Below, piece after piece: positions 3,744 through 46,227 of a DNA stretch of 64,000 nt. The translations under genes and the position numbers were made by a program. The first letter of the stretch is position 1. Each line of letters begins with the position of its first letter. Location of the stretch: the NCBI GenBank assembly GCA_014905635.1, contig JABVCE010000012.1, forward strand, positions 1,054,001 to 1,118,000. The letters are read 5' to 3'. This DNA is from Scenedesmus sp. PABB004 (lineage: Eukaryota). The notes beneath the pieces were generated by a model that ran no database searches, was not told where the DNA came from, and saw only the letters and a list, made by a program, of their open reading frames with translations.

Positions 3744-6700
3744 TCAGCCCCGGCCGACGGGGCGCTCGCACACAAACGGCATCACGACGTGCGGCTGGAA
3801 CACCTCCCACACGCCGACCGTGTCCAGCGGCTGGTTGAAGTCGTTGCGCCACGCAATGAACGCGCCGACCGTGTCCTTGCTGGCATCGTCCCCGGGCTGC
3901 TGCGGGTTGGAGTCGCCCCAAAACCCCTCGCTGCCCCAGGCCTCGTACGCAGAGACCGCGCCGCTGACCCACTGGTAGCTCTCCCTGCGCCGGCGAGACG
4001 TGCCGGGGCGCGCCCACAGGCCGATCCAGACGTAACGAAAGCCCGCGCCCTGCACGAGGCCCCCCAGCGCCGAGTTGACGTCCGCGGACGTCACGCTGAC
4101 CAGGTGGCCGCCCGCAAGGACGCACACCGCCTCGGCGTCCATGGCGGTCAGGGTGCTAGTGTAGAGCTCGAGAGTGCCGCCGCCAGGCCGCGGCACCGAT
4201 GCGGCGGGCACGGCTGCGGGGCGCAGCGCAGTGCAGGCGGCCGTGGCGGCGCTCAGCGCGCCGCGGCGACGCGCTGCCCTGGGCCGCTGGCTGGCTCGGC
4301 AGGCGCGCCAGCGCCCGTCTGCCCGCTGAGGCTGGCCAAGCCACACACGGTCAGGCGCCCCCGGCTCACCCTGCTTGCAGTCTCCCACCGCGTCGTGTGC
4401 CGACACGTCCCTGCCCAGCATGGGCGCGCCCACAGAGGTCAGCATGCCCGCGTTGGGGCAGGGCGTGCAGCCGGCGGAGCTGGTGGCGTCCTTGTAGCTG
4501 CCCTCGGGGCAGAGGTGGCAGCCCCAGCCCACGGGAAAGGTTCCGAGCGGGCAGTCTGCGGCGAGCAGAGCGCCAGCGAGACCCGCCGTACCTTAAGGGC
4601 GCGCGTCAGCGCCCCCCCCCCCCCCCCCGCGTGCTGGCGTGCAGCGCCGCAGAGCGCAGCACCCCACGCAGAGATGCCTTCGCACCTGCCAGCCTGCCGC
4701 CCGAGCCCCGCAGCCACAGCTGGGCGAGGGTGTTCATCCGGGGGTCGTTGAATGCGACGTCCACCCAGAGTGAGTTGGGCGAGAACGCCAGGATGGCTCT
4801 GTTCGACAGCGTTGGCAGCAGGCCGTCGAGCTTGGCCTGAGTGTGCCCTGGCAGCGGTGTGTAGCTCGGCTGCATACGGTTGAGGAACAGGCCGGTCGCT
4901 GGCGCGGTGAAGCCCGAGTCGGCTGAGCCCGACTGGAGGTAGTCGTTGCTGCCGGTCCGGATGTACTCCAAGCTGTTGGGCTCGGAGGACTTGAGGTGAA
5001 TCGTGCCCTGGCTTGTGCGCACGGACAGCCGGAACTCCGAAACCTTGGGCAGCGCGCCCAGGACTTCAGGGCGCATGTGGCCCCACGAGCCGCCCGGGCC
5101 CTTGGACCGGCTCTCGTCCGTGCCCAGCACCGTGCTGTTGAGCAGGGGAAAGCCGTCCGCGAGGCTGCGCATGTACGTGTTGGGCGCGGTGCCGGCGGCG
5201 CGGTTGTAGTTCAGCACCAGCAGCCAGCCGCCGCCGTCGGTGTCCATGTCACAGTATGCCTGCGGCGAGCACCGGCGGCAGCCAGCGGCGGCCGCGCGTG
5301 AAGAGGGAGGAGGGCAGGAGGGCGGCGCGGCGTGGCGCGCGACGCCGACCACAGCGCGCAGCCTCGCCGCGAGCACGCGCTGCGCGCAGTGCGCACGCCG
5401 CCGCTGCCTGCGGAGCCTGCGCCCGACCTGGTAGGTGTTGCCAGCGATGGTGATGGGGAACACGCCGCTGGGCCGGCCCTGGCCGATGAACTCATCGCAG
5501 AGCAGAAACTCGCTCGCTGGTCGCAGGGCGGCAGGCGGTGCGCGGCGCGTCAACGACCAGCCTTGCACGGGCGCTCCGCGGGCTGACGCCTGCGTGCTGG
5601 TCGCAGCCTCAGCCCAGCGCCTGCGCGCGCCCCACCAGGCTTGCAGTCCGAAGCCTCGTCCCGGTCGGCGGCGGTCTGGCCCAGCGTGACGGTGCCCTCG
5701 GGGCAGCGCGTGCAGGCCTGGGCCCCAGTGCTGGGCTTGAAGGTGTCGTCCCCACACACGATGCAGTCGGTGCCGTCGGGGGTCTGGCCGGGCGGGCACT
5801 CTGCGAGCGGCAGCAGCAGGCGCTTGATAGGGCTGCTGTCGCTGAGTCGCCTAGCGTCTTTGCTGGACTGCCCCGCCCCACCCCACACCGCGGGCCACGC
5901 ACCGATCTGCGCCACCTGCTGCAGCCGCGCCGCCGTGATGCCGCACACGCGCACGCGCTTGCCCTCCAGGCTTTGCGACAGGTCGGGCTGCTTGCTCGTG
6001 CCGCCCTGGGCGTCCAAGAACTGGAACGCGCCGCGCTCTGCGTTGTCCCGCACAAACTGCATGATGTCGACGCCAAACCAGTCCACCACGCCGGCGACCC
6101 AGTCGCCTGGCTGGCCTTGGTACCAGAAGCAGCCGGGCGTCGCGTCCGGCTCGACCGACCGCCGCGCAAGCTTGGTCGTCGCCAGCGGCGGCAGCGCGCA
6201 GCCCACGGCAAAGGTCTGCTCCGTGTTGCCCACGCCGGCCTTGCCGTATGCTACGCGCACCAGGCCGCCGCCGGCGAGGTCCTTGTCGGGGAGCTGCACC
6301 CACCAGAAGAGGCCGACGTTGTCATAGCTGCGCAGCGGCGGCAGCACCGGCGGTGCGCGCAGCTGCAGGTGAGCCTGGGCAGGCGACGAGCGCGCGCATG
6401 CCCACGCGCCCGCACGCGACGCGCCTCACCCGACAATCGACACGGCAATCTGCAGCACGCCCCGCGCGCTGGAGTCCACCGTCGCGTTGTAGACGCCGCC
6501 AGGGTTGCGCTCAAAGAAGGGCCTGAAGCTGCCGTCCAGCAGCATGCTGCTCAGCACGGCGCCGCGCACGCGCACAGCGCGCTGGATCGACAGGAATGAG
6601 TCCAGCGCTTCATACGAGCAGCCCAGGACCGGCACGGCAGGCTTGCAGCGGCTGACCACCTCGCTGCACGCCGCGCCGCTCACGACGGGGCCGCTGCCAA

Positions 6701-8055
6701 CGCAGCTGGCGGCCGCCAGGAAGGGCGCCGGCGCCGCGGCCAGCGCGCTGACGGCTGCCTCATTGCTCCAGCCCAGCTCGCACGGGCGCGCTTCCAGCTG
6801 CTCTGGGCTTGCACCCCACAGCGTGTTTGTTGGCGGGGCACAAAAGTAGGCCAGCGTTGGCGACAGCGCCAGCCCCGCCGCTGGCACGGCCTGCGACGAC
6901 GCCAGCGACGCCTCGAGCACGCTGGCCACGGCGCTGCCCACCACGGTGGCGCACGGCGCCCGCGCCTTGGGCACAGGCAACCGGCTGGGCAGGCCCAGCC
7001 AGGGCTCGTCCGCGCGGTACGCTGCGGGCGCGCCTGCGGCGGGGCGGCCAGCCGGCAGCGAGCAGCAGCGCGCGAGGCGACGCGTCAGGCGAGCTGTGGC
7101 CGTGCACGGGCGGGACGAGGGGCTGGCGCAACTGCCAGTCCCTTGAGCGCTCCGCAGCACGCACCTGCCAGGAACGCCTCCGCCGCTGCTGCCTGGGCGT
7201 CCAGCGCGTCGCAGTTGATCATGCATCCGCGCTTGCGCCGCCCGCCGCCCTTGCCCGTGAACGTGCGAGCAAAGTCCAGGCTGTCCTCAAACACCGACAG
7301 CAGGGCCACCACCTGGCCCATGCCCTTTGTCGGCTCCTGCCCCGGCAGCAGCCCGCCTGCGCGAGGCAGCAGCAGCAGTGTCGGCAGCGACCGGCGAGCG
7401 GGCAGCGCCTGGGACTGCCGCGGGGCGGCGGCGCAGCCGCCAGCCGCGCCGGTTGACAAGGCCGGCCGCTGCACGGCCCGCCGCGCCGCCCACCTTGCAT
7501 GCAGTCGCTGGCGGCGTCGCGGTTGGCCGGCTGCTGGCCCGCGGTGAACGTGCCCGGCGCGCACTTAACGCAGCGCGCCGCGCCCGCGCGCGCCTTGAAG
7601 GTGTTGGCCGGGCACGTGCTGCAGCGCCCGCCCGCCAGCTGCTGGCCGGGCGGACATCCTGCGCGAGGTGCGCACGGCGGCGGTCAAGGACGAGCAGCGA
7701 AGGGCGCCAGCGAGCGGCCGCGCGCGGCTCGAGCAGCAGCAGCGGCGCGCCGCGGCCGGTGCCGCCGCGCTGCGTTGCCGCAGCTGGCGCTGCGGGCGCT
7801 CGCCCGCACACCTCTGATGCAGCCCTCGCCCTGGCGCGCGTAGCCGGCGTTGCAGCGCAGCGCGCAGCCCCCCGTGGGCGTGCAGCTGGTGACGCCGTTG
7901 GCCACCGGCGCGCAGGCGCACGATCGCGGCGAGCCGCCGGCACTGGCGCTCGTGCTGCCGGTCGCCGGAGCCTGGGCGACCGCGCAGGTGGCCGCCAGCA
8001 GCAGCAGCAGCGCCAGCGGGGGGCGCGCCCGCCAGCGCCCGCCCCCGGCGCGCAT
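3744..8055 (-). CDS. Secreted mosaic protein copy A: Cys-rich (GCC2/GCC3, ephrin-receptor-like) repeats, inactive papain-like domain, LysM, fibrinogen-like domain, C-type lectin
   Basis: Signal peptide MRAGGGRWRARPPLALLLLLAA; CxxCPxxTFK/CTxCP repeats; LALSPTLAYFC; LysM-like YQGQPGDWVAGVVDWFGV; YCDMDTDGGGWLLV; AEAVC..GGHLVSV..WIGL..FVCERP. No transmembrane segment seen. Confidence 0.8.
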
Positions 8056-8108
8056 GGCCGCCTCCACGCGGACGACCCTGCCACGTCCGCCTAGCGGTCG
8101 ATCATGGT
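4126..8108 (-). repeat. Left arm of a ~4 kb inverted repeat (partner 13779-17735)
   Basis: Reverse complement matches 13779-17735 almost base for base, introns included (e.g. ORF 5641..6327 is identical to ORF 15558..16244). Confidence 0.95.
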
Positions 8109-8871
8109 CTGCGCGGGCGACGGCGAGCCAGGGCCGCGCAGGGGGGCGGACTTGCCTCTCGTTTTGCGGGCCGCCAACCGTGCGGCGGGTGCGGCGGGTG
8201 CTTGATCACTCGCGCCTTGGCAGCAGCGCGCTGTGGGCGGGAGGGGGCCGGCGACGGCGCCCTGTCAGCTGCGGCCCGCTTGACACCGCCCCCCGTGGCC
8301 GCCAAAAAACGGGCACCTGCGCATAAGGCCCACCAAGTCGCAGTGGTCGATCGCCAGCGGCGTCCCGGCGCGGCGACAGGCTCTGCCGCGCCGCCGCCGC
8401 CGCCGCCGCGCCGGCCGCAGCGCGCGCGCGCAGCGCTCGCCCGCGGCCGTGCAGCGCTGCCGTCGCCGCCGCTCGCTGCGCCCTGACATCTCCAAGCTTG
8501 CTGCTGGCGCAGGCCGGCCTCGGTGGGGCCCTCAGTGCTGGCTGCGGCGGGCGGCGGCGCGGTCGATAGCCCCCGCGGCTGGTCACCCGGCAAGGTGGCG
8601 CCGGTGACCCGACCAGGCAGCGCCGCGCCGGCGCCGGCGCGCCGGCTGGCGGTGTTTGCGCCCGCCTGCGGGTCGCCGTGCCCTGCCGTCGCTCCACACC
8701 GCGCGTGATAGCGCCGGCGACCGCGCCCCCTCCGCTGCCAGCCGTCGGCAGGGCCCGCCAACGCGCGCCAGCTTCTCGCGCTGCCGACTCGTGCGGTGGC
8801 GGCCGGTCGATCGGGCAACTTCGGGCCGGCTTACCCCGCGGCGAAGCGGCCGCCTTCCGCGCTCCTTTCTC

Positions 8872-11800
8872 ATGCGGCAGCGTGCGCGCTGCGCGGCGCG
8901 ATGGGCCGCGCTGCTGTTGAGCTTGCTGCTGGCGCCGCCCGGGCGTTCAGGTGCGGGGCCGGGCCGGGAGGGTGCCGGCGAGCAGATGGCGCCCTGCTCC
9001 CGGGTGCACTGGCGCCCCTGGCGTCGGCCGTCCGCGCCGGCCGACGCCCGGCGCCGCCCTGCACGCTCACAGCGGCTCTCGACTGCGGGACGGGCCAGAC
9101 GGCCAGCAAGGACGGCGCGCGGTGCGTGGTCTGCCCTCCCAACACGTACAAGGACGCGCAGGGGGCGGCGCCGTGCACGCCCTGCCCCGACGGCACCTTC
9201 ACGGCCGGCAACTCCAGGGCCGCCCACACCAGCCGCAGCAAGTGCTTGCCAGGTGCGCGCGCCCGAGCGCGGGGGCGCCGGGCAAGGCGGCGGCGGCTGG
9301 CCCGCGCCGCTCGAGCGGCGCGCCAACGTGCGCGGCGCGCGCCGCCTCTCCCCTCGCAGGCGGCCTGTCGAGCAGCGGCGACAAGCCCCGCCGTCCGCTG
9401 CTGCGGCAGTTCCGGGAGCAGCTGGCTGAGGCGCAGCAGTTCCTGGGGCGCGGCGGGCGCGCAGCGGCGGCGCCGTGCACGAGCGGCTGCAGCAACGCGA
9501 GCACGGCCGCGTCGCTGCTGCGCGACCTCTCCCAGGGCGCCGCCTGGCTGGCGGCCAGCCCGCAGGCGTGGTCATCGGACCAGGGGCGGCTGCGGCTGCC
9601 GCCGACCAGGTGCGCGCGGCCGCCGCGACGTGCGCGCGCGTGCGGCGCGCTCACGGCGCAACAGGCAGGAGCGGGCGCGCGCCGGCGCGCCCGGCTGACG
9701 CACGCACGCGCGCGCGCGCGCGCGCGCGCGCGCCGCAGGCCGCGCGTGCTGGACCAGGGCCAGTGCGCGACGTGCGTCAACGCGGCGCTCGCGAGCGCGG
9801 TCGAGGCGGCGGCCGCGGCCGAGGCCGGCAGTGCCGCGCAGGGCGTGTGGGCGCTGTCGCCGGCATACGCCTACTACTGCCAGCCCGCGCTCACGCGCTC
9901 CTGCGGCAGCGGCTGGACCTTCCGGGACGCGCTCGCCGCGGTCGCGGCCGGCGTCGGCAGCCAGCTGCCGGAGCAGGCGTGCCTGCAGGGCGTGGACCTG
10001 GAGCAGGTTCGCAGCGTCACCCCGAGCGCGCTGCAGGGCGAGTGCAGCAGCATCGCGGCGCGCTGCCCCGCGGGGAGCCGCGGCTCGCCCGTGCTCCAGG
10101 GCTGCAGCTCCCGGCAGCTGTCCGCGTTCTGGGACATTCAGCGCGCCATCCGCAGCCGCGGCGCCGTCGTCACGCGGGTGCGCGCGCGCGCGTGCGCAGC
10201 CGGCGGCGCCGCCGCCCGCCCACCCGCCCGGCGCGCGCCGCCGCCGCCGACGCGCGGCCCTCCCGCCCCTGCGCGCCGCGCCGCGCCCGCAGGTGTCGGT
10301 GGACAGCAGCTTCATTGAGTTCTTTGCCACCAGCCCCCGCGGCGTGTTCAACGCGAGCGGCGCGACGCCGGGCGCGTTCCCGCACGCCGTCATCCTGGTG
10401 CGCCGCGCCGCGCCGCGCCGCGCCGCGCGTGCGCCGCGCGTTGGCCTGCGCGCCGCGCCCGCGCCCGCGCGCGCCCGCGCGCCCACGTGCCCGCGCGCCC
10501 ACCCCCCCCCCCCCACACACACAAACACAGATTGGGTACGACAACGAGCGCCAGTTCTGGGTCGCGCAGAACTCGTACGGGCCCGGCTTTGCCGACGGCG
10601 GCGTGTTTCGCATCGCGTACGGCGCCGCCGACGTGGCCAACCCGGACGAGACGTTCGAGCTGCGCTGCAGGCTGCGGCCCGACGTGCCGTCGCCGCCCGC
10701 GATGCGCTGGCCCCTGCGCGCCGCGCCGGCCGGCGCGGGCGGCGGCGGCGAGCGGTGCTACCGCTACACCGCGCGCAACGGCGACTACCTGGCAGGCATC
10801 GCGGAGCACCTGGGCGTGGGCACGCTGCGGCGGCTCGTCGCGGACGCCGCGGAGCGTGGCGCGTTTGCGCTGCTGCCCAGCGGCAGGCCCGACCTGTCCA
10901 CGCCGCTGGCGGGGCAGTCGCTGCTCGTGTGCGGCGTGACGGAGGACCTCACGCGGCGCGGCCTGCAGGGTGCGCGGGCGCGCCGGGCGGGCGGGCGCGC
11001 GGGGCGTGCGGGGCAAGTCGGCGGCCCGGCGTGGGGGAGGGGGCAGCCGCGGCCGGCGCGGCAGGCGCCGGGCCCGCCGCGCACCGCACCGAGCGCGCGC
11101 GCCGCCCGCGCCGCCGCGCCGCAGACTGCCCGGCCGGCCAGGCGGGCGCCAACGGCACGTGCGCGGCCTGCCCCTATGCCACGTACAAGGACGCCGCCGG
11201 GCCCAGCGACTGCCAGCCGTGCCCCGACGGCAGCGGCACGCTGTCCTGCGAGCCGGAAGGGCACGACAGCGCGGCCGACTGCGTGCCATGTGAGTGCGGG
11301 GCAAGGGACGGGGCGGGCGGCGCCCGCGCGCGGTGCGCCGGGCCAGCGCCGCCGCGCCGGCCCCGCGCCCAGCCCCGCGCCGACCCGCGCCTGAGCGCGC
11401 GCCGCCGCCGCCACGCGCGCGCGTCGCCGCCGGCGCCGCAGTCACGGAGCAGTTCATGTGCGAGCAGTTCATGGGCAAGGGCGCCCGCAGCGGCGTGTAC
11501 AACGTCACGCTGCGCTGCCAGACGTTCCAGGCGCGCCCCCGCGCCCGGCCCGACGCCGCGCCCCCGCCGCGCGCCGGCCGCGGGCAGCCGGCCGCCGGCC
11601 GCCGCCCGCGCGGCCGCGCCGCCGCGCCCACGCGCTCGCCCGCCGCCGCTGCTGCGCGCCCGGCAGGTCTACTGTGACATGGAGACCGACGGCGGCGGCT
11701 GGACGCTGATGCTGAGCTACAACCTCGCGCCGGGGTCGCAGGACGCGCCGCCGCCCGACGACTTCAAGCGCACGCGCGCCGACGGCTGGCCGCTCCTGAG

Positions 11801-12207
11801 CAGCAACCCGCTCGGCGTCGACGAGTCGCGCAGCGTCGGCGTCGGCGGGACGTGGGGCCACATGGGCCCCGATGGCATGGGCCTCGTGCCCAACGTCGCC
11901 GAGGTGCGCGGCGAGTTTGAGATGCCCGACGTGCTCTTCGGCTCGGGCGGCGTGCTCGCCGCGCGGTACAAGACGTCGGAGCCCATCACCGTGGACTACG
12001 TGCGCTTCGCCGCGCGCAACCGGGGCGTCAACCTCAACGGCATCCGCCACGACTTCACGCCCCTCCCCGGGCACAACTACTTCTTGCCCAGCGACGGCGA
12101 GGGCGGCTTCAGCAAGTACGATCTCTTCGGCCTCGCCGCGCTCGGCATCCCGCTGCGCCACACCGTCTACTTCCGCGGCCGCCCCAGCACGCCCAAGCGT
12201 GCGTCCC

Positions 12208-12283
<76 letters not shown>

Positions 12284-13136
12284 GCCGCGCGGGCGCCGCC
12301 GCCGCGCGGCGGCGCCGATGCGCCCCCGCCGCCCGGCCGCGCCCCGGCCGCCGCCGCGCAGCGTGCCCGCCCGGCATGCAGCCGCGCGGCATGGGGTGCC
12401 ACATCTGCCCCGACCACACCTTCAAGGCGGTGACGGGCGCCGGCGACTGCACGCCCTGCCCCAAGGGCACCGTCGCCACGACGCCCAAGTCACGTACCGC
12501 CCAAGTCACGTACTCGCGCTCCGCCGCCAACCACGACAGCCCCGACGACTGCGTGCCACGTGCGGCGCCGCGCGCGCGCAGCGCCGCCGCGCGCGAGGCC
12601 GGCCGCGCGGCCGGGCCTGGCTGACTGCCGCCGCGCGCCGCCGCCGCCGCCGCCGCGCAGCCGTGCCGGACGCGGCGTGGAACGTGACGCGCCCCGACGG
12701 CAGCGCGTGGCTCTGGGAGTTTTTCTGGTCGGTGCGCGCGCGCCAGCCGCACGCCGAGGAGCTGTGCGCGTCGCGCGGCGGGCACCTCGTGACGGTGGAC
12801 TCGCCGGAGGTGCGCGACCTCCTCGCCGCGAGCGTCGCCGACGACGCCGCGACGGGGCGGCCGCTCTTCCCCGCTCTCTACCCCCTCAACATTGTCTGGC
12901 TCGGCCTGCACTCGCCCGTGACGTCGGCCGCGCCCGACGGCCCCTGGGCGTGGTACGGCGGCGCGCCCTACCCCGGGCCGTTCACCAACTGGATGGACAA
13001 CCAGCCGGACAACTACCTCGGCCGCCAGGGCCGCCAGGCCGGCCTCCTGCTCGACAACGAGAGCCGGTGGGACGACCTCATGCAGGAGTTCATGCTCGAG
13101 TTTGTCTGCGAGCGCCCCGTCGGCGCGGCGCGCTGA
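8872..13136 (+). CDS. Secreted mosaic protein copy C: Cys-rich repeats, papain-like C1A protease with catalytic residues intact, LysM, fibrinogen-like domain, C-type lectin
   Basis: Signal peptide MRQRARCAARWAALLLSLLLA; VLDQGQCATC (Cys 9773), PHAVIL/IGY (His 10383), FWVAQNSYG (Asn 10570); LysM YTARNGDYLAGIAEHLGV..GQSLLVC; SGVYNV../VYCDMETDGGGWTLM; lectin WMDNQPDN..WDD..FVCERP. Confidence 0.85.
12210..12281 (+). repeat. (GCC)24 intronic microsatellite
   Basis: Uninterrupted GCC run. Confidence 0.9.
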
Positions 13137-13493
13137 CGGCCGCATGGCGCCCGCGCACGCGGCGGCGGCGGCGGCGGCGGCGGCGGGGTGGTCGGGGCGG
13201 GCTGAACTGCATGCATCACACGTGAACAGCTGTGGCTCGGCGTTGGAGTCGATGTGTGTTTGGTTTTCTCCCTTCCTGAACGCGACACCACGGAAGATCC
13301 TTGGCAAATTTCACCCGCCGGCCAGCCGGCCTGCACTGCAGTTGGTCGGCGCATTCGGACTGCTGCCGAAACGGTCTCGTGCTGTCGGGATGCATTTGCA
13401 ACTGATGCATCTGCACCTGCAGCGCAGGCTGCACGCAAGTGAGCACCACTGCTCACCTGTGCTGAGGAAATGAGTTTGGGTGACGGGTGGGCG

Positions 13494-13568
13494 CCAACTG
13501 ACGTGGCGCCAGCCTGGACGAGACCGTTCGCCCAACCGACGTGGCGCCAGCCCGGACGAGACGTTTGG
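13494..13568 (+). repeat. Two imperfect ~38 bp tandem copies containing ACGTGGC, upstream of copy B
   Basis: ccaactgacgtggcgccagcctggacgagaccgttcg and ccaaccgacgtggcgccagcccggacgagacgtttgg. Confidence 0.75.
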
Positions 13569-13778
13569 CGCTGGCGCGCTGTGCGTGAACTGGGCGTGAA
13601 AAGCGAGGTCCGAATCGTTGGCCGCTCAGTTCCGCGCGGCGTCCGTGCCTCCAGGCGAGCCTGTGCACCGCCAGGCGCAGCGTCTCGCAGCCAGCTCTCT
13701 CCAGGTCCCGGAGCAGGCGCAGGTTCCTGGTCACCGGCGGCGGCGGCAGCCGTAGGAGCCGCCCAGGTCCCCGCACCC

Positions 13779-16700
13779 ACCATAATCGACCGCTAGGCGG
13801 ACGTGGCAGGGTCGTCCGCGTGGAGGCGGCCATGCGCGCCGGGGGCGGGCGCTGGCGGGCGCGGCCCCCGCTGGCGCTGCTGCTGCTGCTGGCGGCCGCC
13901 TGCGCGGTCGCCCAGGCTCCGGCGACCGGCAGCACGAGCGCCAGTGCCGGCGGCTCGCCGCGATCGTGCGCCTGCGCGCCGGTGGCCAACGGCGTCACCA
14001 GCTGCACGCCCACGGGGGGCTGCGCGCTGCGCTGCAACGCCGGCTACGCGCGCCAGGGCGAGGGCTGCATCAGAGGTGTGCGGGAGAGCGCCCGCAGCGC
14101 CAGCTGCGGCAACGCAGCGCGGCGGCACCGGCCGCGGCGCGCCGCTGCTGCTGCTCGAGCCGCGCGCGGCTGCTCGCTGGCGCCCTTCGCTGCTCGTCCT
14201 TGACCGCCGCCGTGCGCACCTCGCGCAGGATGTCCGCCCGGCCAGCAGCTGGCGGGCGGGCGCTGCAGCACGTGCCCGGCCAACACCTTCAAGGCGCGCG
14301 CGGGCGCGGCGCGCTGCGTTAAGTGCGCGCCGGGCACGTTCACCGCGGGCCAGCAGCCGGCCAACCGCGACGCCGCCAGCGACTGCATGCAAGGTGGGCG
14401 GCGCGGCGGGGCAGCGGCTGGCCTTGTCAACCGCGGCGGCTGGCGGCTGCGCCGCCGCCCCGCGGCAGTCCCCAGGCGCTGCCCGCTCGCCGGCCGCTGC
14501 CGACACTGCTGCTGCCTTGCGCAGGCGGGCTGCTGCCGGGGCAGGAGCCGACAAAGGGCATGGGCCAGGTGGTGGCCCTGCTGTCGGTGTTTGAGGACAG
14601 CCTGGACTTTGCTCGCACGTTCACGGGCAAGGGCGGCGGGCGGCGCAAGCGCGGATGCATGATCAACTGCGACGCGCTGGACGCCCAGGCAGCAGCGGCG
14701 GAGGCGTTCCTGGCAGGTGCGTGCTGCGGAGCGCTCAAGGGACTGGCAGTTGGCGCCAGCCCCTCGTCCCGCCCGTGCACGGCCACAGCTCGCCTGACGC
14801 GCCGCCTCGCGCTGCTGCTGCTCGCTGCCGGCTGGCCGCCCCACCGCAGGCGCGCCCGCAGCGTACCGTGCGGACGAGCCCTGGCTGGGCCTGCCCAGCC
14901 GGTTGCCTGTGCCCAAGGCGTGGGCGCCGTGCGCCACCGTGGTGGGCAGCGCCGTGGCCAGCGTGCTCGAGGCGTCGCTGGCGTCGTCGCAGGCCGTGCC
15001 AGCGGCGGGGCTGGCGCTGTCGCCAACGCTGGCCTACTTTTGTGCCCCGCCAACAAACACGCTGTGGGGCGCAAGCCCAGAGCAGCTGGAAGCGCGCCCG
15101 TGCGAGCTGGGCTGGAGCAACGAGGCAGCCGTCAGCGCGCTGGCCGCGGCGCCGGCGCCCTTCCTGGCGGCCGCCAGCTGCGTTGGCAGCGGCCTCGTCG
15201 TGAGCGGCGCGGCGTGCAGCGAGGTGGTCAGCCGCTGCAAGCCTGCCGTGCCGGTCCTGGGCTGCTCGTATGAAGCGCTGGACTCATTCCTGTCGATCCA
15301 GCGCGCTGTGCGCGTGGGCGGCGCCGTGCTGAGCAGCATGCTGCTGGACGGCAGCTTCAGGCCCTTCTTTGAGCGCAACCCTGGCGGCGTCTACAACGCG
15401 ACGGTGGACTCCAGCGCGCGGGGCGTGCTGCAGATTGCCGTGTCGATTGTCGGGTGAGGCGCGGCGCGTGCGGGCGCGTGGCCATGCGCGCGCGCTTGCC
15501 GCCTGCCCAGGCTCACCTGCAGCTGCGCGCACCGCCGGTGCTGCCGCCGCTGCGCAGCTATGACAACGTCGGCCTCTTCTGGTGGGTGCAGCTCCCCGAC
15601 AAGGACCTCGCCGGCGGCGGCCTGGTGCGCGTAGCATACGGCAAGGCCGGCGTGGGCAACACGGAGCAGACCTTTGCCGTGGGCTGCGCGCTGCCGCCGC
15701 TGGCGACGACCAAGCTTGCGCGGCGGTCGGTCGAGCCAGACGCGACGCCCGGCTGCTTCTGGTACCAAGGCCAGCCAGGCGACTGGGTCGCCGGCGTGGT
15801 GGACTGGTTTGGCGTCGACATCATGCAGTTTGTGCGGGACAACGCAGAGCGCGGCGCGTTCCAGTTCTTGGACGCCCAGGGCGGCACGAGCAAGCAGCCC
15901 GACCTGTCGCAAAGCCTGGAGGGCAAGCGCGTGCGCGTGTGCGGCATCACGGCGGCGCGGCTGCAGCAGGTGGCGCAGATCGGTGCGTGGCCCGCGGTGT
16001 GGGGTGGGGCGGGGCAGTCCAGCAAAGACGCTAGGCGACTCAGCGACAGCAGCCCTATCAAGCGCCTGCTGCTGCCGCTCGCAGAGTGCCCGCCCGGCCA
16101 GACCCCCGACGGCACCGACTGCATCGTGTGTGGGGACGACACCTTCAAGCCCAGCACTGGGGCCCAGGCCTGCACGCGCTGCCCCGAGGGCACCGTCACG
16201 CTGGGCCAGACCGCCGCCGACCGGGACGAGGCTTCGGACTGCAAGCCTGGTGGGGCGCGCGCAGGCGCTGGGCTGAGGCTGCGACCAGCACGCAGGCGTC
16301 AGCCCGCGGAGCGCCCGTGCAAGGCTGGTCGTTGACGCGCCGCGCACCGCCTGCCGCCCTGCGACCAGCGAGCGAGTTTCTGCTCTGCGATGGGTTCATC
16401 GGCCAGGGCCGGCCCAGCGGCGTGTTCCCCATCACCATCGCTGGCAACACCTACCAGGTCGGGCGCAGGCTCCGCAGGCAGCGGCGGCGTGCGCACTGCG
16501 CGCAGCGCGTGCTCGCGGCGAGGCTGCGCGCTGTGGTCGGCGTCGCGCGCCACGCCGCGCCGCCCTCGCGCCCTCCCCCCTCACGCGCGACCGCCGCTGG
16601 CTGCCGCCGGTGCTCGCCGCAGACATACTGTGACATGGACACCGACGGCGGCGGCTGGCTGCTGGTGCTGAACTACAACCGCGCCGCCGGCACCGCGCCC

Positions 16701-17735
16701 AACACGTACATGCGCAGCCTCGCGGACGGCTTTCCCCTGCTCAACAGCACGGTGCTGGGCACGGACGAGAGCCGGTCCAAGGGCCCGGGCGGCTCGTGGG
16801 GCCACATGCGCTCTGAAGTCCTGGGCGCGCTGCCCAAGGTTTCGGAGTTCCGGCTGTCCGTGCGCACAAGCCAGGGCACGATTCACCTCAAGTCCTCTGA
16901 GCCCAACAGCTTGGAGTACATCCGGACCGGCACCAACGACTACCTCCAGTCGGGCTCGTTAGATCAGGGCTTCACTGCGCCAAGAACTGGCCTGTTCCTC
17001 AACCGTATGCAGCCGAGCTACACGCCGATGCCGGGGCACACTCAGGCCAAGCTCGACGGCCTGCTGCCGACGATGTCCATCCGAGCCATCCTGGCGTTCT
17101 CGCCCAACTCACTCTGGGTGGACGTCCCATTCAATGACCCCCGGATGAACACCCTCGCCCAGCTGTGGCTGCGGGGCTCGGGCGGCAAGCTGGCAGGTGC
17201 GAGGGCATCTCTGCGCGGGTGCTGCGCTCTGCGGCGCTGCGGGCCAGCGCGCGGGGGGCCCGCTGACACGCGCCTGTTTTGTGGGTCTTGCCGCCACGCT
17301 GCTCGCCGCAGACTGCCCGCTCGGAACCTTCCCCGTGGGCTGGGGCTGCCACCTCTGCCCCGAGGGCAGCTACAAGGACGCCACCAGCTCCGCCGGCTGC
17401 ACGCCCTGCCCCGACGCGGGCATGCTGACCTCTGTGGGCGCGCCCATGCTGGGCAGGGACGTGTCGGCACACGACGCGGTGGCAGACTGCAAGCAGGGTG
17501 AGCCGGGGGCGCCTGACCGTGCGTGTGGCCCCAGCAGGCGGACGGGCGCCATCGCACCTGCCGAGCCAGCCGGCAGCCCAGCGCAGCGCCGTCGCCGCGG
17601 TTCACTGAGCGCCGCCACGGCCGCCTGCACTGCGCTGCGCCCCGCAGCCATGCCCGCCGCGTCGGTGCCGCGGCCTGGCGGCGGCACTCTCGAGCTCTAC
17701 ACTAGCACCCTGACCGCCATGGACGCCGAGGCGGT
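13779..17735 (+). repeat. Right arm of the ~4 kb inverted repeat (partner 4126-8108)
   Basis: Identity starts at accataatcgaccgctag (13779) versus the reverse complement of 8091-8108, and falls off inside the C-type lectin exon near 17735. Confidence 0.95.
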
Positions 17736-18099
17736 CTGCGTCCTCGCGGGCGGCCACCTCGTCAGCGTGACGTCGGAGGAGGTCAACGCGGCGCTCGGCG
17801 GGCTCGCGCTCAGCCAGGGGGTGCGCCAGCTTTGGGTCGGGCTGTGGGCCAGCCCTGGGCTCCCGCTGTGGAAGAGGGAGAGCTTCCGCTGGCTGGACGG
17901 CACGACGCTGAGCTACGAAGCCTGGGGCGAGCAAGGGTTCTGGGGCGACACGGTCGACCCCGACGACGTGGACGCGGGCGGTCGCGGCGGTGGGTTTGTC
18001 GGCTGGATCAACGTCCGCAACCAGCGGGGCACGCTCGGCGCCTGGGACGTATTCAAACGGTACGGCTCGATGGCGTTTGTGTGCGAGCGCCGCGGCTGA
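13832..18099 (+). CDS. Secreted mosaic protein copy B (inverted duplicate of copy A, inactive papain-like domain, divergent C-type lectin)
   Basis: Same exon series as copy A. ATG at 13832; ends ...YGSMAFVCERRG-TGA at 18099. Confidence 0.8.
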
Positions 18100-18616: not shown

Positions 18617-18903
18617 TCACCAATTAAAATCGGACACTGGGCCTGGCCCCGACGCGTCGGCGTAGAGCGCGTGCGCGCGGCAGCGCACGGTCGAGCGCAG
18701 CTCGTCGATGAGGCGGGCCCAGTTTGAGTAGATTGACGCGACGAAGCCGTCGCAGCGCAGCGCGAGGTCCAGGTTGAGCAGGCCGTCCAGGACCTCGTTG
18801 GACATGCCGTGCTGCGTCATGTACAGCAGGTTTGGCACCGCCGCGTCGGGCTTGCGCGGCATGTCGACGTACGACGCCGCCCAGCCGCGCCGCGGCGCGC
18901 TCG

Positions 18904-18964
<61 letters not shown>

Positions 18965-20367
18965 GGCGTCGCTCGCAAAGTACACGACCGTGGCGGGGTC
19001 CTCTGTGCTCAGGAAGAGCTGGCGGCTCAGCGCCGGGTCGTCCGCGAGCAGCCGCAGGACGGCGGCCTCGTACTGCGCGTCGGTGAAGGTGGGCGCCTCG
19101 GTGCCCTTGTCGCCGTGCCGCACGTACAGGCTCACGCAGCCCGGCGCCAGCGCCGCGCCGCGGAACTTGGCCCTGCGCCGCACGGCGGCGGCGGCAGGGG
19201 GCGTTGGCGGGTGGCGGCGCGCGGCGCGTGGCGCGCGGCGCGTGGCGCGCGGCGCGTGCTGCGCGACGGGGCGGCGCCGCACGCGCCGCACCGCTCCCTG
19301 GCGCTGAGCTCCTCCCGCGTGCGCGCGTTGGGGCGAACGATGTACGCGACGCCCTGCGCGCGCCACCAGTAGTAGTGGTTCTTGGCCGGTATCGCTGTCG
19401 CGGCGAGGCGCCCGGCGAAGCGGGTCGGCGCCTTGTCGCGCAGCGCCGCCGCGATCGCGCGCGCGTCGGTCGCCATGACGCGCGGGCCCGCCGGGTCGGC
19501 GAGCGCCGCGGGGTCTGCGCTGAACACCGCGCCCGCCACCTCCTCGGCGCTCAGGCGGCAGTGGCTCAGCGGCTCAAAGTAGCACGCGTCGAGCGTGTCG
19601 CGGCCGGCGCACCAGTCGTCGGCGGCGAGGAAGTGGCCGGGCGCCTCGGCCAGCAGGCGCCCGCTGTCGAGCGCCGCCTGCAGCGCAACGGTCGCCATGT
19701 GCAGCACGCTGCGCGCGCGCGGGCGGGCGGGCGTGTGTGCGGCGGCGGGCGGGCGCTCGGCGGGCGCGCGGCGGTGCGGTGCGGTGCGGGCGCGCGGCCG
19801 CCGCCGTGGCCGGCAGCCCCCGCTGTCGCGCGCGCCTGCCGATGCCGCTCGGCGGCGCGCTGAAGACCAGGAAGCGCGCGCCCTCGCAGCTCGGCGGGTT
19901 CTGGTGCCGCCAGATGTCCTGCTGCGCCTGCGCGCGTGTGCGCGGCGGCAGCACAGCGGCGGCGGCGGCGGCTCGCACGTGCACGGCATCGTGAGCCGCG
20001 CGCGCGCGCGCGGCAGCATAGCGCGGCGCAGCGCGCGCACCTCGGCCGTGAGGGGCAGCACGCCGCCGACGGTGTTGGCGGCGGCGGCGTCGTCGGCGGC
20101 CATCCACGACCCCGGCAGCAGCTGCTGCGGGCAGTCGTCGGTCATGCTGCCCCCGAAGATGTGATTCGTGCGCGGCCGCGCCGGCGCCGGCGCGGCTGGC
20201 CCGCCGGCGCGCACGTGCTGCCAGGCCAGCAGGCTCAGCGCCGCCAGCGCCACCAGCAGCGCGCCGCGCGCCGCGGCGCGCTGCTTGAGGCGGCGCAGCT
20301 GCTGGTTGCGCGGGCTGCCGCCGCCGGGGCCCGGAAGCAGCGCCTCCAGCGCTGCCAGGGACGCCAT
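18617..20367 (-). CDS. GT23/alpha-1,6-fucosyltransferase-like type II membrane glycosyltransferase
   Basis: N-terminal TM segment ALLVALAALSLLAW; IWRHQNPPSC; GIG/SVLH; motif I YVRHGDK, motif II LFLSTEDP, motif III LLNLDLALRCDGFVASIYSNWARLIDELR. Confidence 0.8.
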
Positions 20368-20743: not shown

Positions 20744-23266
<2,523 letters not shown>

Positions 23267-23629
23267 CGGCGCTGCGCCCGCCTCCGCGCCCGCGGGGGCC
23301 GCCCGCACGCTGTCCGGGCGGCCGGCGACGCTCCGGGGCTGGGGCGCGGCCGCTTCGGGGGCTGGTGGTCCGGCAGGGCCCGGGGCGGCCTGCAGGGGCG
23401 GAGCAGCAGCAGCAGACGGCAACCGCACAGCCCCGCTGCGCGAGAGGGGCGGCGGGCACTGGACCGGCTGTGCGGTGTGGGGACGGGCCCGGCGCAGGAA
23501 TGGCGGCGGCGGCAGCGCGGCGCGGGCGCTGGTTGCAGCGCCGCCGCTGTTTGTGACGCTTCGGGCAGCGGTTCCGCGCTCCCGGCGCCGCCGCTGCCCG
23601 CGGGCCGCGCCGCCGCCGCCCGGCGCCGC

Positions 23630-25069
23630 TCAGTCCTCCATGTCGCTGAGGCTGTCGGGTGGCCACGCGACGGGCTCGAGGCGGCCGCCCATGTGCATGC
23701 GCCACGCGACGTCGACGAGCGGCGCGATGTCGGCGAGGTCGTGGCTCACCACGAGCAGCGTGGCCTCCTTCTTCAGCTCACGCAGCAGGCCCACCACCTC
23801 CCTGGCGCACCGTGGGCGAGCGGGCGGGCGGCGCAGCGGTCTAACCGTGAGCCCGGGGGGCGCCGCCGCGGCGCGGCGCCCGCCGCGCGCCGCCAGCCGG
23901 CGGTGTGCAGCGCGGCGCACCTGCGCGCGCGCCAGTCGAGGCCCGCCAGCGGCTCGTCCAGAAGCAGCACGCCCGGCGCGCGCACGAGCTGCAGCGCGAG
24001 CGCGAGGCGGCGCTGCTGGCCGCCGCTGAGCGCCGAGGGGCTGATGTTGAATGGCACGCCGCCCAGGCCGACCGCGTCGATCACCTGCGGCGGCCGCCGG
24101 GCGCGGCGCCAGTCGCGCAGCGCGACGCCCGGCCGTGAGCACGCGCCGCGCGACGCCGCGCCGCCGGTGCGCGCGTCGCCCGCCGCGCGCGCGCCGCGCA
24201 CCCGCTGCATGCGCACGGCCATCGCGCTGCGCTGGCCCCAGAACGCCGTGTCGCGGGGCCAGGTGAAGGTCATCTCCGCCATGACGTCATCCCCCAGGAA
24301 GTGACGCTCCGGGAACTGAAACACCAGCCCCACCTGGCGGGCGCGCCGCGGCGGCGCCGGGCACGGCGGCGCGGGGTGGGCGGCGAGCGGGCGGCGCCCG
24401 GCGGCGGGCGGCGCCCGGCGGCGGGCGGCGCCGCGCAGAGCGCCGCGCAGCGCCGCCGCGCGGCGCGCCGCGCGCCTGCTGCATGCGCTCCTCGATGTGC
24501 GTGGGCAGCAGCAGCCCCGACGCGTGGTCGCCGGGGCGGGGGCGGTGCACGAAGATGTCCCCGCGCGTCTGCTCGCTCAGGCCCGCGAGGAGCTGCAGCA
24601 GCGTCGTCTTGCCGCTGCCGGAGCGGCCGATGATCAGGCCCAGCTGGTTGGGCGGCAGCCGGAAGGACACGCCGTCGAGCAGCGGCGCGTCGGCGCCGGG
24701 CGGGTGGAACGCGAGGTCGCGCACGAGCACGCTGCCGCCCGGCAGGCCGCCGCCGGCGCCGCCGCCGGCGCCCGCCTCGGCCGCCTGCTGCAGCTGCAGC
24801 GCGGCCGCCATGAGCAGCCCCGCGAGGCCGTTGGGGTCGATGCCGCCTGGGCCGAGCCCCGGCGGCGGCCCGCCACCGGCTGCTGCGGCCGCCGCGACGC
24901 CCCGCCGCGGCGGCGCCGCCGCACAGCAGCCCGCTGCGCCCGGCCGCCGCGCCGCAAGCTGCTCGCGCGCCGCGCCACGCGCGGCGAGCCGCTGCCGCGC
25001 GACGCGCGGCCGCGCACTGCCGCTGCAGCCGCCGCCGCTGCAGGCGCGCAGCCGCGTCGCCGCGGCCAT
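23630..25069 (-). CDS. ABC transporter I-family (EcfA/CbiO-like, ABCI11/NAP14-like) ATPase, probably plastid-targeted
   Basis: Ala/Arg-rich transit peptide; Walker A GRSGSGKTT; Q-loop GLVFQFPERHF; LSGGQQRR; LLLDEPLAGLDW; VSHD. Confidence 0.88.
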
Positions 25070-28476: not shown

Positions 28477-28826
28477 GATCCGGTCGCTGGGGCAGCTCGG
28501 TCCAGTAGCCAAGCAGCCTGGCCGCGCCCTGAGCGCTTGCGGCCGGCGCTGCGGCGGCGCGGCTGCTGGAGCGAGGGCGAGTGATGGCGGACTCTGTGCG
28601 CGCACAGGCGCGGTCGTGGCGGGCTCGGCGGGCTGGCGTTGAACAGAGGATGCGGTGCACCACGCGCTGGGTTGCCGGCGCGGACCGCCGCGCATCAGGC
28701 GCGGTGAGCCCTGCGACGACAGCAAGCGCCGCTGCTGGCGCGCGCCGCCGCCGCACCACACACTCCCCCGCCGCCCGCCCGCCCGCCGCCGTGCGCCAGA
28801 GCCACGTGGAAGCCAGCCGATCAGAC

Positions 28827-29342
28827 ATGCTGTGCCTGGCGGGGCGCGCGGCGCGGGCCGCGCTGAGCAGCGGCAGCAGCGGCGGCGCGTGGCGGCGGCC
28901 GCTCGTGCCGGCGCGCGCGCTCTCCGCGGCGGCGGTGGAGGCGTCCACCGACGCGGAGCGCGCGATTGCGGCGAAGATCGCGGAGGGCATGCGCTGCAGC
29001 GCCGTGCGCGTGTCCGACACGAGCGGGGGCTGCGGGGCTATGTACAGCATCGAGGTGCGCGCGCGCGCCGGGCCGGGCCGGGGCCTCCGGCAGCGGCGCG
29101 GCGCGCTGGGCGCCATGTACAGCAGCAGCTGGGCGGCAGTGCGCGGCGCGGCGCCGCCGCCGGCGCGGGCCGCCGGCGCGGGCCGCCGACGGGGCGCGGC
29201 GCGCTGCCTTTGCCGCGGCCAGGTCGTGAGCGACGAGTTCAAGGGCCTCAGCATCGTGAAGCAGCACCAGCTCGTCACGCGCCTGCTCAAGGCGGACATC
29301 GCCGAGTGGCACGGCTTCCACCTCACCACCAAGGCGCCGTGA
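28827..29342 (+). CDS. BOLA: BolA family protein (BOLA3-like, organelle-targeted)
   Basis: VSDTSGGCGAMYSIE/VVSDEFKGLSIVKQHQLV..DIAEWHG; one intron at ~29055-29223. Confidence 0.9.
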   Translation: MLCLAGRAARAALSSGSSGGAWRRPLVPARALSAAAVEASTDAERAIAAKIAEGMRCSAVRVSDTSGGCGAMYSIEVRARAGPGRGLRQRRGALGAMYSSSWAAVRGAAPPPARAAGAGRRRGAARCLCRGQVVSDEFKGLSIVKQHQLVTRLLKADIAEWHGFHLTTKAP

Positions 29343-41142: not shown

Positions 41143-41629
41143 GGCTGCTGTGCGGGGATGTCGCCAGTCTGTGAGCGGGGACTCACGGCCAAGGCGGATG
41201 ACGCTCTTCACGCTCTTGAGAGGGAGGGCTTTGGCCTCGCGCGCCAGGACCGCCAACGCGCCCCAGGCCCCGCGTTCCCGACGCACGCCGGGCACACACA
41301 CTCCGGGATCACACCGCCGGGGCCGGCAGGCGACGCGAGAGCTCGGCGTCCCACACACACGCGGCCAGCGCCGTGCCCAGGCACCCGGGCAGCGGGCCCG
41401 CACGCTCCCGAGAACATTCGGGTGTCGCTCGAGGGCCCAGTGCCGGGTTGGGCGCGGGGCGCACAGGTGGGCGCGGGGCGGGCCGCATGCGGTGGAGAGC
41501 GCCTTGCCCTCGTCGCCCTCTGCGTCGCCTCACGCCCGCCCGCCCGCCGCGCGCGCCCCGCAGTCCGTGCGTGCCCCCCAGCGTCTAGCGCTGCTCCTGG
41601 GGCGGCGCGCGGGCCAGGAGCCGCGCGCA

Positions 41630-45970: not shown

Positions 45971-46227
45971 TGCGGCCGAGCAAAACAGCAGCTGCGCCGC
46001 GCGGGGCGTCACGCCGGCGCGCAAACTTTTGAGCGAGCCCGCCGTCCCCGCCGCCCCGCCGCCCCGCCGCGCCCGCCCGCTCGCACGCCGCACTGTCGCC
46101 TCGCCCGTGATCGGAAAACCGCGACAGCTCGCCCCGATCGGCGAGCCCGACAAAAGACAGCAGTCGCGCCCGCCCCCCGCCATGCGCGCGCGCTAGGCCC
46201 CCGCAGCAGCGCCCGCAGCCGCCCAGG

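Follow-up and report, generated by a model that had tools for sequence, protein, structure and literature searches.

Gene content of the locus

The window analysed here is a stretch of 64,000 nucleotides (nt) of the genome of Scenedesmus sp. PABB004 (GenBank assembly GCA_014905635.1, contig JABVCE010000012.1, positions 1,054,001 to 1,118,000 of the forward strand; the coordinates below are those of the window). Positions 3744-18099 hold three intact multi-exon genes, one on the minus strand (gene 1) and two on the plus strand (genes 2 and 3), encoding mosaic proteins that are predicted to be secreted and to join a papain-family domain to a LysM-like module, a fibrinogen-like domain and a C-type lectin domain. 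They belong to two types, since the catalytic residues of the protease are all kept in gene 2 (type A) and all lost in genes 1 and 3 (type B). A first-pass annotation had described three paralogues alike; the shared architecture stands but the division into two types had been missed. The bounds it gave to the cluster are exact, being the stop codon of gene 1 (3744-3746) and that of gene 3 (18097-18099), and the order it gave for the modules is that of gene models matching two deposited proteins of this strain, namely the hypothetical protein HT031_004107 (P0003) and the 1999-residue HT031_004108 (P0004). The G+C content of the window is 72-82 %, which fits the genome of this strain, for which a published table gives 39.8 Mb, 78.5 % GC and 7,092 genes (PMC12571836). 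The gene models are as follows.

3744..8055, minus strand: gene 1, type B, predicted pseudoprotease; 10 exons, 1037 residues; translation exactly that of P0003
8055-7812, 7658-7494, 7356-7165, 7033-6430, 6327-5903, 5800-5636, 5516-5428, 5259-4686, 4555-4370, 4213-3744, minus strand: exons of gene 1
8872..13136, plus strand: gene 2, type A, predicted active-type protease; 11 exons, 983 residues; hand-built model identical, letter for letter, to residues 1-961 of P0004
8872-8950, 9073-9252, 9360-9609, 9739-10177, 10293-10397, 10531-10969, 11125-11289, 11442-11530, 11667-12198, 12362-12559, 12661-13136, plus strand: exons of gene 2
13832..18099, plus strand: gene 3, type B, predicted pseudoprotease; 10 exons, 1031 residues; translation that of residues 969-1999 of P0004
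13832-14075, 14229-14393, 14525-14716, 14850-15453, 15558-15982, 16085-16249, 16369-16457, 16623-17196, 17312-17497, 17648-18099, plus strand: exons of gene 3

The introns of gene 2 are 101-163 nt long, nine of them being GT-AG and one GC-AG (11531-11666). Regarding genes 1 and 3, GT-AG was checked at 16 of the 18 splice junctions and both reading frames are intact; in gene 1, a script identified seven of the nine junctions as GT-AG, and the remaining two (exons 2/3 and 3/4) follow the mirror-image positions in gene 3, with exact translation as their only check. The models splice cleanly, and indirect support for the exons of each gene being joined in one transcript is provided by a Logan contig of 3435 nt, which encodes without interruption the 1028-residue type-B orthologue of Tetradesmus (P0010) and so leaves no space for introns. 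The GC donor of gene 2 intron 8 (CAG/GCGCGC), on which the deposited model agrees, has a GT counterpart of identical position and phase in genes 1 and 3.

That genes 2 and 3 form the single 1999-residue gene of the public annotation is highly improbable, and the annotated fusion is probably a mis-annotation. A GT...AG pair at 13067-13809 does allow the deposited model to join them, but the intron so defined would span 743 nt, whereas the 28 others in the trio measure 101-168 nt, and the last 22 codons of gene 2, which complete its lectin domain, would be dropped. The lost end, WDD...FVCER, is also found in P0180 and P0167, orthologues of gene 2; in genes 1 and 3, too, the lectin domain runs to its end. 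The fusion also takes in seven codons upstream of the gene 3 start and buries its signal peptide at residue 969. Besides, the G+C content falls to 55-63 % at 13200-13500, just past the own stop codon of gene 2, as it does after a gene end, and the Tetradesmus orthologues of genes 2 and 3 are separate genes.

Module order and predicted secretion

All three genes encode, in the same order, a predicted signal peptide, an Ephrin_rec_like Cys-rich repeat, a pro-like region, the papain-family domain, LysM, a second Cys-rich repeat, the fibrinogen-like domain with its YCDMxTDGGGW motif, a third Cys-rich repeat and the C-type lectin domain. When raw frames or exons taken singly were searched with Pfam, neither Peptidase_C1 nor LysM was detected. 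Among the domain calls of the first-pass annotation, Ephrin_rec_like, Peptidase_C1 (in gene 2), Fibrinogen_C, NF040941 and Lectin_C came out above their cut-offs. Ephrin_rec_like (PF07699) occurs three times per gene, with raw-frame scores of 25.4-31.3 bits for seven of the nine repeats (cut-off 23.1), namely all six of genes 1 and 3 plus one of gene 2, and with six stretches totalling 111.4 bits in P0004, which covers genes 2 and 3. The repeats and the N-terminal elements are located as follows.

7812..8055, minus strand: gene 1 exon 1, signal-peptide-like segment (hydrophobic window at residues 12-33) and extra EGF-like Cys-rich stretch (residues 29-82)
7494..7658, minus strand: gene 1 Ephrin_rec_like repeat 1 (PF07699, 28.2 bits), a symmetric phase 1-1 exon
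7165..7356, minus strand: gene 1 pro-like region, ahead of the protease-like domain; conserved in relatives, where profile matches begin at ~130-190; no family match
5636..5800, minus strand: gene 1 Ephrin_rec_like repeat 2 (PF07699, 25.6 bits)
4370..4555, minus strand: gene 1 Ephrin_rec_like repeat 3 (PF07699, 26.8 bits)
9073..9252, plus strand: gene 2 Ephrin_rec_like repeat 1 (PF07699, 31.3 bits), a phase 1-1 exon
11125..11289, plus strand: gene 2 Ephrin_rec_like repeat 2 (17.4 bits on the raw frame; among the six stretches of P0004)
12362..12559, plus strand: gene 2 Ephrin_rec_like repeat 3 (among the six stretches of P0004)

The view of these proteins as secreted and devoid of membrane segments agrees with Kyte-Doolittle scans. 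An N-terminal hydrophobic core is found in genes 1 and 3; that of gene 2 is shorter, Leu-rich and under the 1.6 threshold. Transmembrane-like segments are absent apart from the N-terminal one and one Ala-rich stretch in the protease-like domain of genes 1 and 3, none of the three proteins has a C-terminal hydrophobic segment, and they carry 38-41 Cys. The extra Cys-rich stretch that follows the signal peptide in type B is absent from gene 2; it was judged EGF-like by eye and has no Pfam match.

Within the third Cys-rich repeat of gene 2 (exon 10, ~12481-12513), a 16-nt unit is perfectly duplicated in tandem. Its period is not a multiple of three, the frame is open and the downstream NHD..DC motif is in frame; the loop concerned is six residues longer than in the Tetradesmus orthologue.

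A predicted active-type protease and its catalytically dead paralogues

The spliced P0004 has a single Peptidase_C1 match (PF00112; 41.8 bits, cut-off 20.7, E 1.8e-10, profile positions 17-206 of 220), which falls in the part encoded by gene 2 (residues 173-383), and the C-terminal strand of this domain aligns to cathepsin C and ananain; exon 4 of gene 2 taken alone gave 0 matches among PDB sequences at E<=10. Genes 1 and 3 have no PF00112 match at E<=0.1, their papain-like domain being recognised via homology alone. They align full length to gene 2 (34 % identity, E 7e-137), and their family profile (A1) retrieves relatives of which 30 carry PF00112 among the 33 tested that cover the protease-like part.

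9746..10626, plus strand: gene 2 Peptidase_C1 domain (residues 173-383), with introns 10178-10292 and 10398-10530 inside
9755-9757, 9773-9775, 10383-10385 and 10570-10572, plus strand: gene 2 catalytic codons for Gln176, Cys182, His347 and Asn365
6198..7033, minus strand: gene 1 predicted papain-fold pseudoprotease domain (residues 203-445), with intron 6328-6429 inside
14850..15687, plus strand: gene 3 predicted pseudoprotease domain, with Trp225, Val231, Ile396 and Leu414 in the catalytic columns

In the papain family, Gln19 is the oxyanion residue. The catalytic residues are Cys25, His159 and Asn175 (PMC2474614). All four columns are kept in the three type-A proteins (gene 2, P0180 and P0181), and among 23 outgroup C1 relatives Gln is found in every one and Cys, His and Asn each in 22. 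In contrast, none of the four residues is left in any of the four type-B proteins (gene 1, gene 3, P0002 and P0001), which read R/W/A, V, I/V/T and L in these columns, gene 1 having R, V, I and L. Five structural Cys columns, invariant in 23/23 outgroups, are retained in all the type-B proteins, so that the nucleophile is the only Cys lost.

This dead domain is conserved like most other modules of the protein: its identity between the window gene and P0002 of Tetradesmus is 57 %, and that of the other modules 54-65 %, if the less conserved lectin domain (41 %) and N-terminal segment (34 %) are set aside; this argues for a maintained pseudoenzyme rather than a decaying gene. Gene 2 is the sole member of the trio predicted to be able to act as a protease, of active type; genes 1 and 3 would be papain-family homologues devoid of a functional catalytic set, in which the fold is presumably kept. 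The first-pass annotation, which placed a protease in all three genes, holds for gene 2 but not for the two others. In P0087, an outgroup C1+LysM-like relative, the catalytic Cys, His and Asn are replaced by S, V and I; this independent loss indicates that catalysis was lost more than once in the C1+LysM-like family.

A cryptic LysM module

LysM domains have a beta-alpha-alpha-beta layout. The candidate module that follows the papain-family domain was assessed with hhalign, by comparing alignments of it with eight LysM domains of E. coli K-12. With a set of 14 sequences, a LysM probability of 91.9 % over 34 columns was obtained; with 45 modules from Sphaeropleales relatives, it reached 95.5 % (P 1.5e-8) over 44 columns spanning the whole LysM. 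As controls, the best of 100 column shuffles gave 13.9 % (14-sequence set) and 2.8 % (45-module set), and the reversed alignment 0.1 %. Two relatives are borderline for PF01476, namely P0128 (20.9 bits, which equals the cut-off) and P0145 (20.4 bits), and the UniRef name of P0167, the Tetradesmus orthologue of gene 2, is "LysM domain-containing protein". Against PDB sequences, the top match of the module profile (A3) was the LysM effector Ecp6, at a non-significant E of 0.12. The LysM of the first-pass annotation is thus upheld in profile-profile comparison but not by Pfam itself. The LysM-like profile matches 60 of the 181 proteins fetched, and the match lies just after Peptidase_C1 wherever coordinates were compared.

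5931..6137, minus strand: gene 1 candidate LysM (residues 466-534), hmmsearch position
10753..10944, plus strand: gene 2 candidate LysM (residues 426-489), hmmsearch position
15748..15954, plus strand: gene 3 candidate LysM, hmmsearch position

A fibrinogen-like start on a GGGWT-type domain

Fibrinogen_C (PF00147, cut-off 22 bits) is found as two stretches in P0004 (50.9 bits) and in the relatives P0002 (27.8), P0001 (29.8) and P0180 (26.8); on single raw exons it scored 16.6-18.8 bits, under the cut-off, the raw frame of gene 1 giving 16.8. NF040941 (GGGWT_bact, the NCBIfam family with a fibrinogen-like YCDxxxxGGGW motif), a model of 46 positions built for bacteria, scored 67.7 bits in P0004 and 37.0 in P0002, against a cut-off of 30.

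4686..5516, minus strand: gene 1 fibrinogen-like/GGGWT domain (exons 7 and 8)
11442..12198, plus strand: gene 2 fibrinogen-like/GGGWT domain (exons 8 and 9, split by the GC-AG intron 11531-11666; PF00147 and NF040941)
16369..17196, plus strand: gene 3 fibrinogen-like/GGGWT domain (PF00147 and NF040941)

The PF00147 matches reach profile positions 5-68 of 221 at most, and a full-length fibrinogen-related domain (FReD) of ~220 residues with its ligand-binding P sub-domain is not recognised at the sequence level. Among 19 relatives covering this part, PF00147 is matched at E<=0.001 in 16 and above cut-off in 14, always over the first 58 profile positions. Searches of solved structures, with the profile (A4) as with single sequences, point to the same portion: intelectins (E 3e-13 to 2e-11 with A4), tenascin-R (4e-9), fibrinogen and ficolins are matched over only ~55 N-terminal residues, ending in YCDMxTDGGGWTLV. 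XEEL, human intelectin-1, ficolins and the tenascin FReD share with the trio this N-terminal sub-domain, with its YCDMxTxGGGWTLV end; beyond these ~55 alignable residues, the ligand-binding part of true FReDs is unmatched by sequence. The fibrinogen/intelectin-like label of the first-pass annotation can be kept for this start, and the rest of the ~200-residue domain is better assigned to a GGGWT-type family.

Many proteins, bacterial and other, contain the ~150-residue remainder in conserved form (alignment A4), and its nearest Atlas clusters are unnamed bacterial and phage proteins. As a whole, the ~200-residue domain, from its YCDMxTDGGGW start to a "...HQIWVR" end, is widespread in bacterial proteins and in phage-linked Atlas clusters, and is named only over its first 46 positions. 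The fibrinogen-like exons of the window matched no PHROGs family and, by tblastn, nothing in a phage collection.

The C-type lectin domains

Lectin_C (PF00059, cut-off 22.6 bits) is above cut-off in the three genes, including the gene 2 exon.

3744..4213, minus strand: gene 1 C-type lectin domain (PF00059, 28.8 bits), without QPD or EPN motif
12661..13136, plus strand: gene 2 C-type lectin domain (PF00059, 26.7 bits), with QPD at 13002-13010 and WDD at 13068-13076
17648..18099, plus strand: gene 3 C-type lectin domain (PF00059, 24.6 bits), 73.7 % identical in DNA to that of gene 1

The calcium- and sugar-site motifs of C-type lectins are EPN or QPD, together with WND. The best solved relatives of the gene 2 domain are CLEC4F, the asialoglycoprotein receptors ASGPR1/2 and CLEC10A, in which QPD aligns with QPD and the Trp-x-Asp of WND with that of WDD, and this QPD...WDD motif, of the galactose type, is also found in the orthologues P0167 and P0180.

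Inverted duplication, probable gene conversion and exon shuffling

Gene 2 is flanked by genes 1 and 3 as the two arms of an inverted duplication (3742-8117/13770-18110), and the arms are not uniformly alike.

13770..16955 (mirror ~8117-4927), strand not applicable: near-identical gene 3/gene 1 tract of the inverted repeats, from the 100-nt identity profile

This tract begins ~60 nt before the start codon, ends midway through exon 8 and, most intron sequence included, is 97-100 % identical in most 100-nt windows, those with intron indels being at 92-94 %. Beyond it, identity is 84-89 % in introns 8-9 and 73.7 % in the lectin exon, and the flanks are unrelated. The silent divergence (dS) between genes 1 and 3 follows the same course: from 0.01 over codons 1-600 it rises to 0.08 in the fibrinogen-like domain and then to 0.48 in the lectin domain, whose middle third is at ~1.1. 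We read this pattern as an old inverted duplication whose 5' 3.2 kb would have been homogenised by gene conversion. The similarity of genes 1 and 3 extends only ~60 nt beyond the ATG into the upstream sequence, so that each dead copy probably has a different promoter.

Ratios of non-synonymous to silent divergence (dN/dS) are crude in a genome of 78 % GC. Positive selection in the type-B lectin domain was considered and is unsupported, with 0.32, 0.42 and 0.74 in successive thirds and never a value above 1. Between types A and B, the ratio of ~0.8-1.1 is unreliable because of saturated silent sites and extreme codon bias at 78 % GC.

That genes 1 and 3 could be decaying pseudogenes, or an assembly artefact of one gene, as the loss of every catalytic residue and 99-100 % identity over ~3.2 kb might suggest, is hardly credible given intact frames with GT-AG junctions, the same four substitution classes with structural Cys kept in orthologues of two other species, the 3' differences and unrelated flanks that make them two loci, and the whole type-B protein encoded uninterrupted in Tetradesmus.

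Every module boundary coincides with a phase-1 intron and each Ephrin_rec_like repeat is a symmetric 1-1 exon, which is the classic signature of exon shuffling. Of the ten introns of gene 2, six match those of genes 1 and 3 in alignment column and phase. Five of these separate modules, and the sixth, of phase 0, interrupts the fibrinogen-like domain; within the protease part, gene 2 and genes 1/3 do not have the same introns.

Distribution and relatives of the family

In word-indexed searches of 5.8 billion clusters, full-length relatives were found solely in Tetradesmus obliquus, Scenedesmus sp. NREL 46B-D3 and PABB004. A profile search of 1.84 billion representatives gave 992 matches at E<=1e-3; among the best 150 of these, P0003 alone spans the whole profile and the others are single modules. 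In a maximum-likelihood tree, types A and B each form a clade (96/94 and 100/100, respectively) that includes the window species, Tetradesmus and NREL 46B-D3. In Tetradesmus, the adjacent locus tags OEZ86_014173 (B), 014174 (A), 014175 (A) and 014177 (B) bring the two types together, and in NREL 46B-D3 a type-A and a type-B protein are encoded on one contig of 221,695 nt. The presence of both types side by side is a feature shared by three Scenedesmaceae genomes.

More distantly, named protease relatives sharing the protease and LysM-like core occur in Hariotina, Chromochloris, Monoraphidium and Tetradesmus. These Sphaeropleales proteins, with Peptidase_C1 and a C-terminal LysM-like module, are homologous to the trio over the pro-region, the protease and the LysM core, and their catalytic residues are intact in 22 of the 23 aligned, as in gene 2; unlike the trio, they do not carry the Ephrin_rec_like/GGGWT/lectin series in this order. 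Their tails are varied, with Lectin_C in P0066 (Monoraphidium minutum), two Lectin_C in P0028 (Hariotina), leucine-rich repeats in P0097, P0102 and P0119, PLAT in P0137 and BTRD1 in P0073 (Chromochloris).

Surroundings of the cluster

Genes 1 and 2 are divergent, with only 816 nt (8056-8871) between their start codons, and may share a bidirectional promoter. Most of gene 2 intron 9 is filled by a (CGC)n microsatellite of ~51 copies (12209-12357), and a similar GCC-rich repeat lies downstream of gene 3 (18845-18981). By tblastn, no further paralogue was found in the window outside 3744-18099. The neighbouring frames 1736-2422, 22441-23629, 23776-24576, 28533-29339, 41015-42469 and 46111-46914 carry Aldo_ket_red, Pkinase, ABC_tran, BolA, RINGv and an XMAP215/CLASP TOG domain, and the neighbourhood is one of ordinary nuclear genes with no obvious functional link to the cluster. 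The polyadenylation signal TGTAA occurs five times in the window against 3.1 expected, with none near genes 1-3, and is uninformative.

Comparison with known systems

Six Chlamydomonas proteins combining Peptidase C1A with lectin modules are tabulated in PMC6362431, one of them with two C-type lectin domains, and a row of its Supplementary Table 3 reads LysM/SRCR/.../Peptidase C1A/C-type lectin(2x). Like the trio, these Chlamydomonas reinhardtii mosaics join a C1A peptidase to LysM and to more carbohydrate-binding modules, including C-type lectin, and in several of them LysM comes after the peptidase. Going by the published domain listing, they have two or three LysM modules where the trio has one, and SRCR, WSC and galactose-binding-like modules where the trio has Ephrin_rec_like spacers and the GGGWT domain; a conserved, catalytically dead paralogue type further distinguishes the trio from the mosaics listed. 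The words "Fibrinogen" and "Ephrin" have 0 occurrences in the supplements of PMC6362431. Lectin-protease mosaics are already catalogued in green algae, and the predicted domain combination of the trio differs from theirs. The first-pass annotation did not recognise the combined architecture from any named family; its kind, however, is known from the C1A+LysM+C-type lectin mosaics tabulated for Chlamydomonas. For the exact combination of modules in the trio, full-text literature searches returned no paper, nor did they for a dead/active pair in algae.

Volvox carteri reportedly has a pheromone- and wound-induced cysteine protease with chitin-binding domains (Amon, Haas and Sumper 1998, Plant Cell 10:781), for which a defence role has reportedly been proposed. 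Like the trio, it would be a green-algal extracellular papain-type protease with modules binding polymers of N-acetylglucosamine (GlcNAc); unlike the trio, it is not known to have fibrinogen-like or C-type lectin modules or a dead paralogue. Inactive cysteine proteases of the scabies mite are multicopy C1 paralogues with mutated catalytic sites, kept beside active ones (PMC5956821). As far as described there, they resemble the trio in this pairing of dead and active C1 paralogues, in an unrelated lineage.

Proposed function and alternatives

With moderate confidence, the locus can be considered as a Scenedesmaceae-specific cluster of secreted mosaic proteins, comprising a putative glycan-docked extracellular protease and non-catalytic paralogues. 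A chlorophycean core, in which a C1A peptidase is followed by LysM, would have been joined to further glycan-binding modules. The signal peptide would direct secretion, after which the lectin modules would dock the proteins on a glycan surface, either the wall of the alga itself or a microbe, with LysM binding GlcNAc polymers, the type-A lectin domain binding sugars of the galactose/N-acetylgalactosamine (Gal/GalNAc) type and the Ephrin_rec_like repeats serving as rigid spacers. Once docked, the type-A protein may cleave proteins at this surface, and the type-B proteins may bind without cleaving, acting either purely as lectins or by competing with, or regulating, the active paralogue.

Several points weigh against this reading. 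LysM (PF01476) gives no Pfam match in genes 1-3 at E<=1, the signal peptides were assessed from hydropathy alone, and the remaining ~150 residues of the fibrinogen-like domain correspond to no solved chain by sequence. Compared with ASGPR, the gene 2 lectin domain is devoid of the inner disulfide, and Gln and Asp replace the calcium ligands Glu and Asn, so that sugar binding is not assured; in type B (genes 1 and 3), no sugar-binding motif can be recognised in the lectin domain.

A more specific view, and a rather unlikely one, is that of an innate-immune sensor-effector, in which the lectin modules would detect non-self glycans (chytrid chitin, bacterial peptidoglycan, capsules) and the gene 2 protein would attack the invader; as part of the same view, type B would provide opsonin-like binders or decoys against the protease inhibitors of pathogens. 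Pattern recognition is a classic role of LysM, fibrinogen-related and C-type lectin modules. Divergence is greatest in the type-B lectin exons (73.7 % DNA identity between genes 1 and 3, 41 % protein identity with Tetradesmus), the clustered, inverted and gene-converted layout resembles that of recognition loci, and the Volvox protease, reportedly pheromone- and wound-induced, would fit. However, the dN/dS of the type-B lectin domain stays below 1 in each third, both types have orthologues in three species and form one clade each instead of a species-specific expansion, and the type-A lectin motif is conserved, not diversifying.

It is also unlikely, on present evidence, that the trio is a self-directed wall or matrix system, with an enzyme acting in autospore release by maternal-wall lysis, wall remodelling or coenobium adhesion and with type B as a structural or adhesive lectin. 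In its favour, the family is restricted to Scenedesmaceae/Sphaeropleales, whose distinctive algaenan and cellulose walls are released at autosporulation (PMC11839794), it is conserved and three copies are retained in the reduced genome of 39.8 Mb and 7,092 genes (PMC12571836), the type-A lectin motif is constant and purifying selection prevails throughout. On the other side, the main text and one supplement of a maternal-wall proteome (PMC11839794), which covers another strain and few proteins, have 0 mentions of the two accessions or of "fibrinogen".

Quite unlikely is the most elaborate version, an algal extracellular recognition system in which an active protease guided by three lectin modules would be accompanied by dead paralogues acting as decoys or opsonin-like binders. 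Through the inverted-repeat layout, gene conversion would keep the 3.2-kb body of the two dead copies identical, their lectin heads staying different; this would follow the logic of a guard/decoy or ficolin-protease system that a unicellular green alga put together independently from modules of animal type.

Biological significance

The present result is a well-supported annotation and evolutionary description, drawn from sequence, and not a functional discovery. It corrects what is probably a fused gene model in the public annotation, and it defines a Sphaeropleales-wide family combining a C1 peptidase with a cryptic LysM, which Pfam does not annotate as LysM. Besides, the phase-1 intron at every module boundary points to a shuffling of extracellular modules in the style of animals, in an alga. 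If the glycan-docked reading holds true, this would be the first green-algal case known to the author of a papain-type protease aimed by three glycan-binding modules and accompanied by a conserved non-catalytic twin, and the cluster would offer a tractable system for how unicellular algae recognise and process glycan surfaces, be they their own walls, parasites or bacteria.

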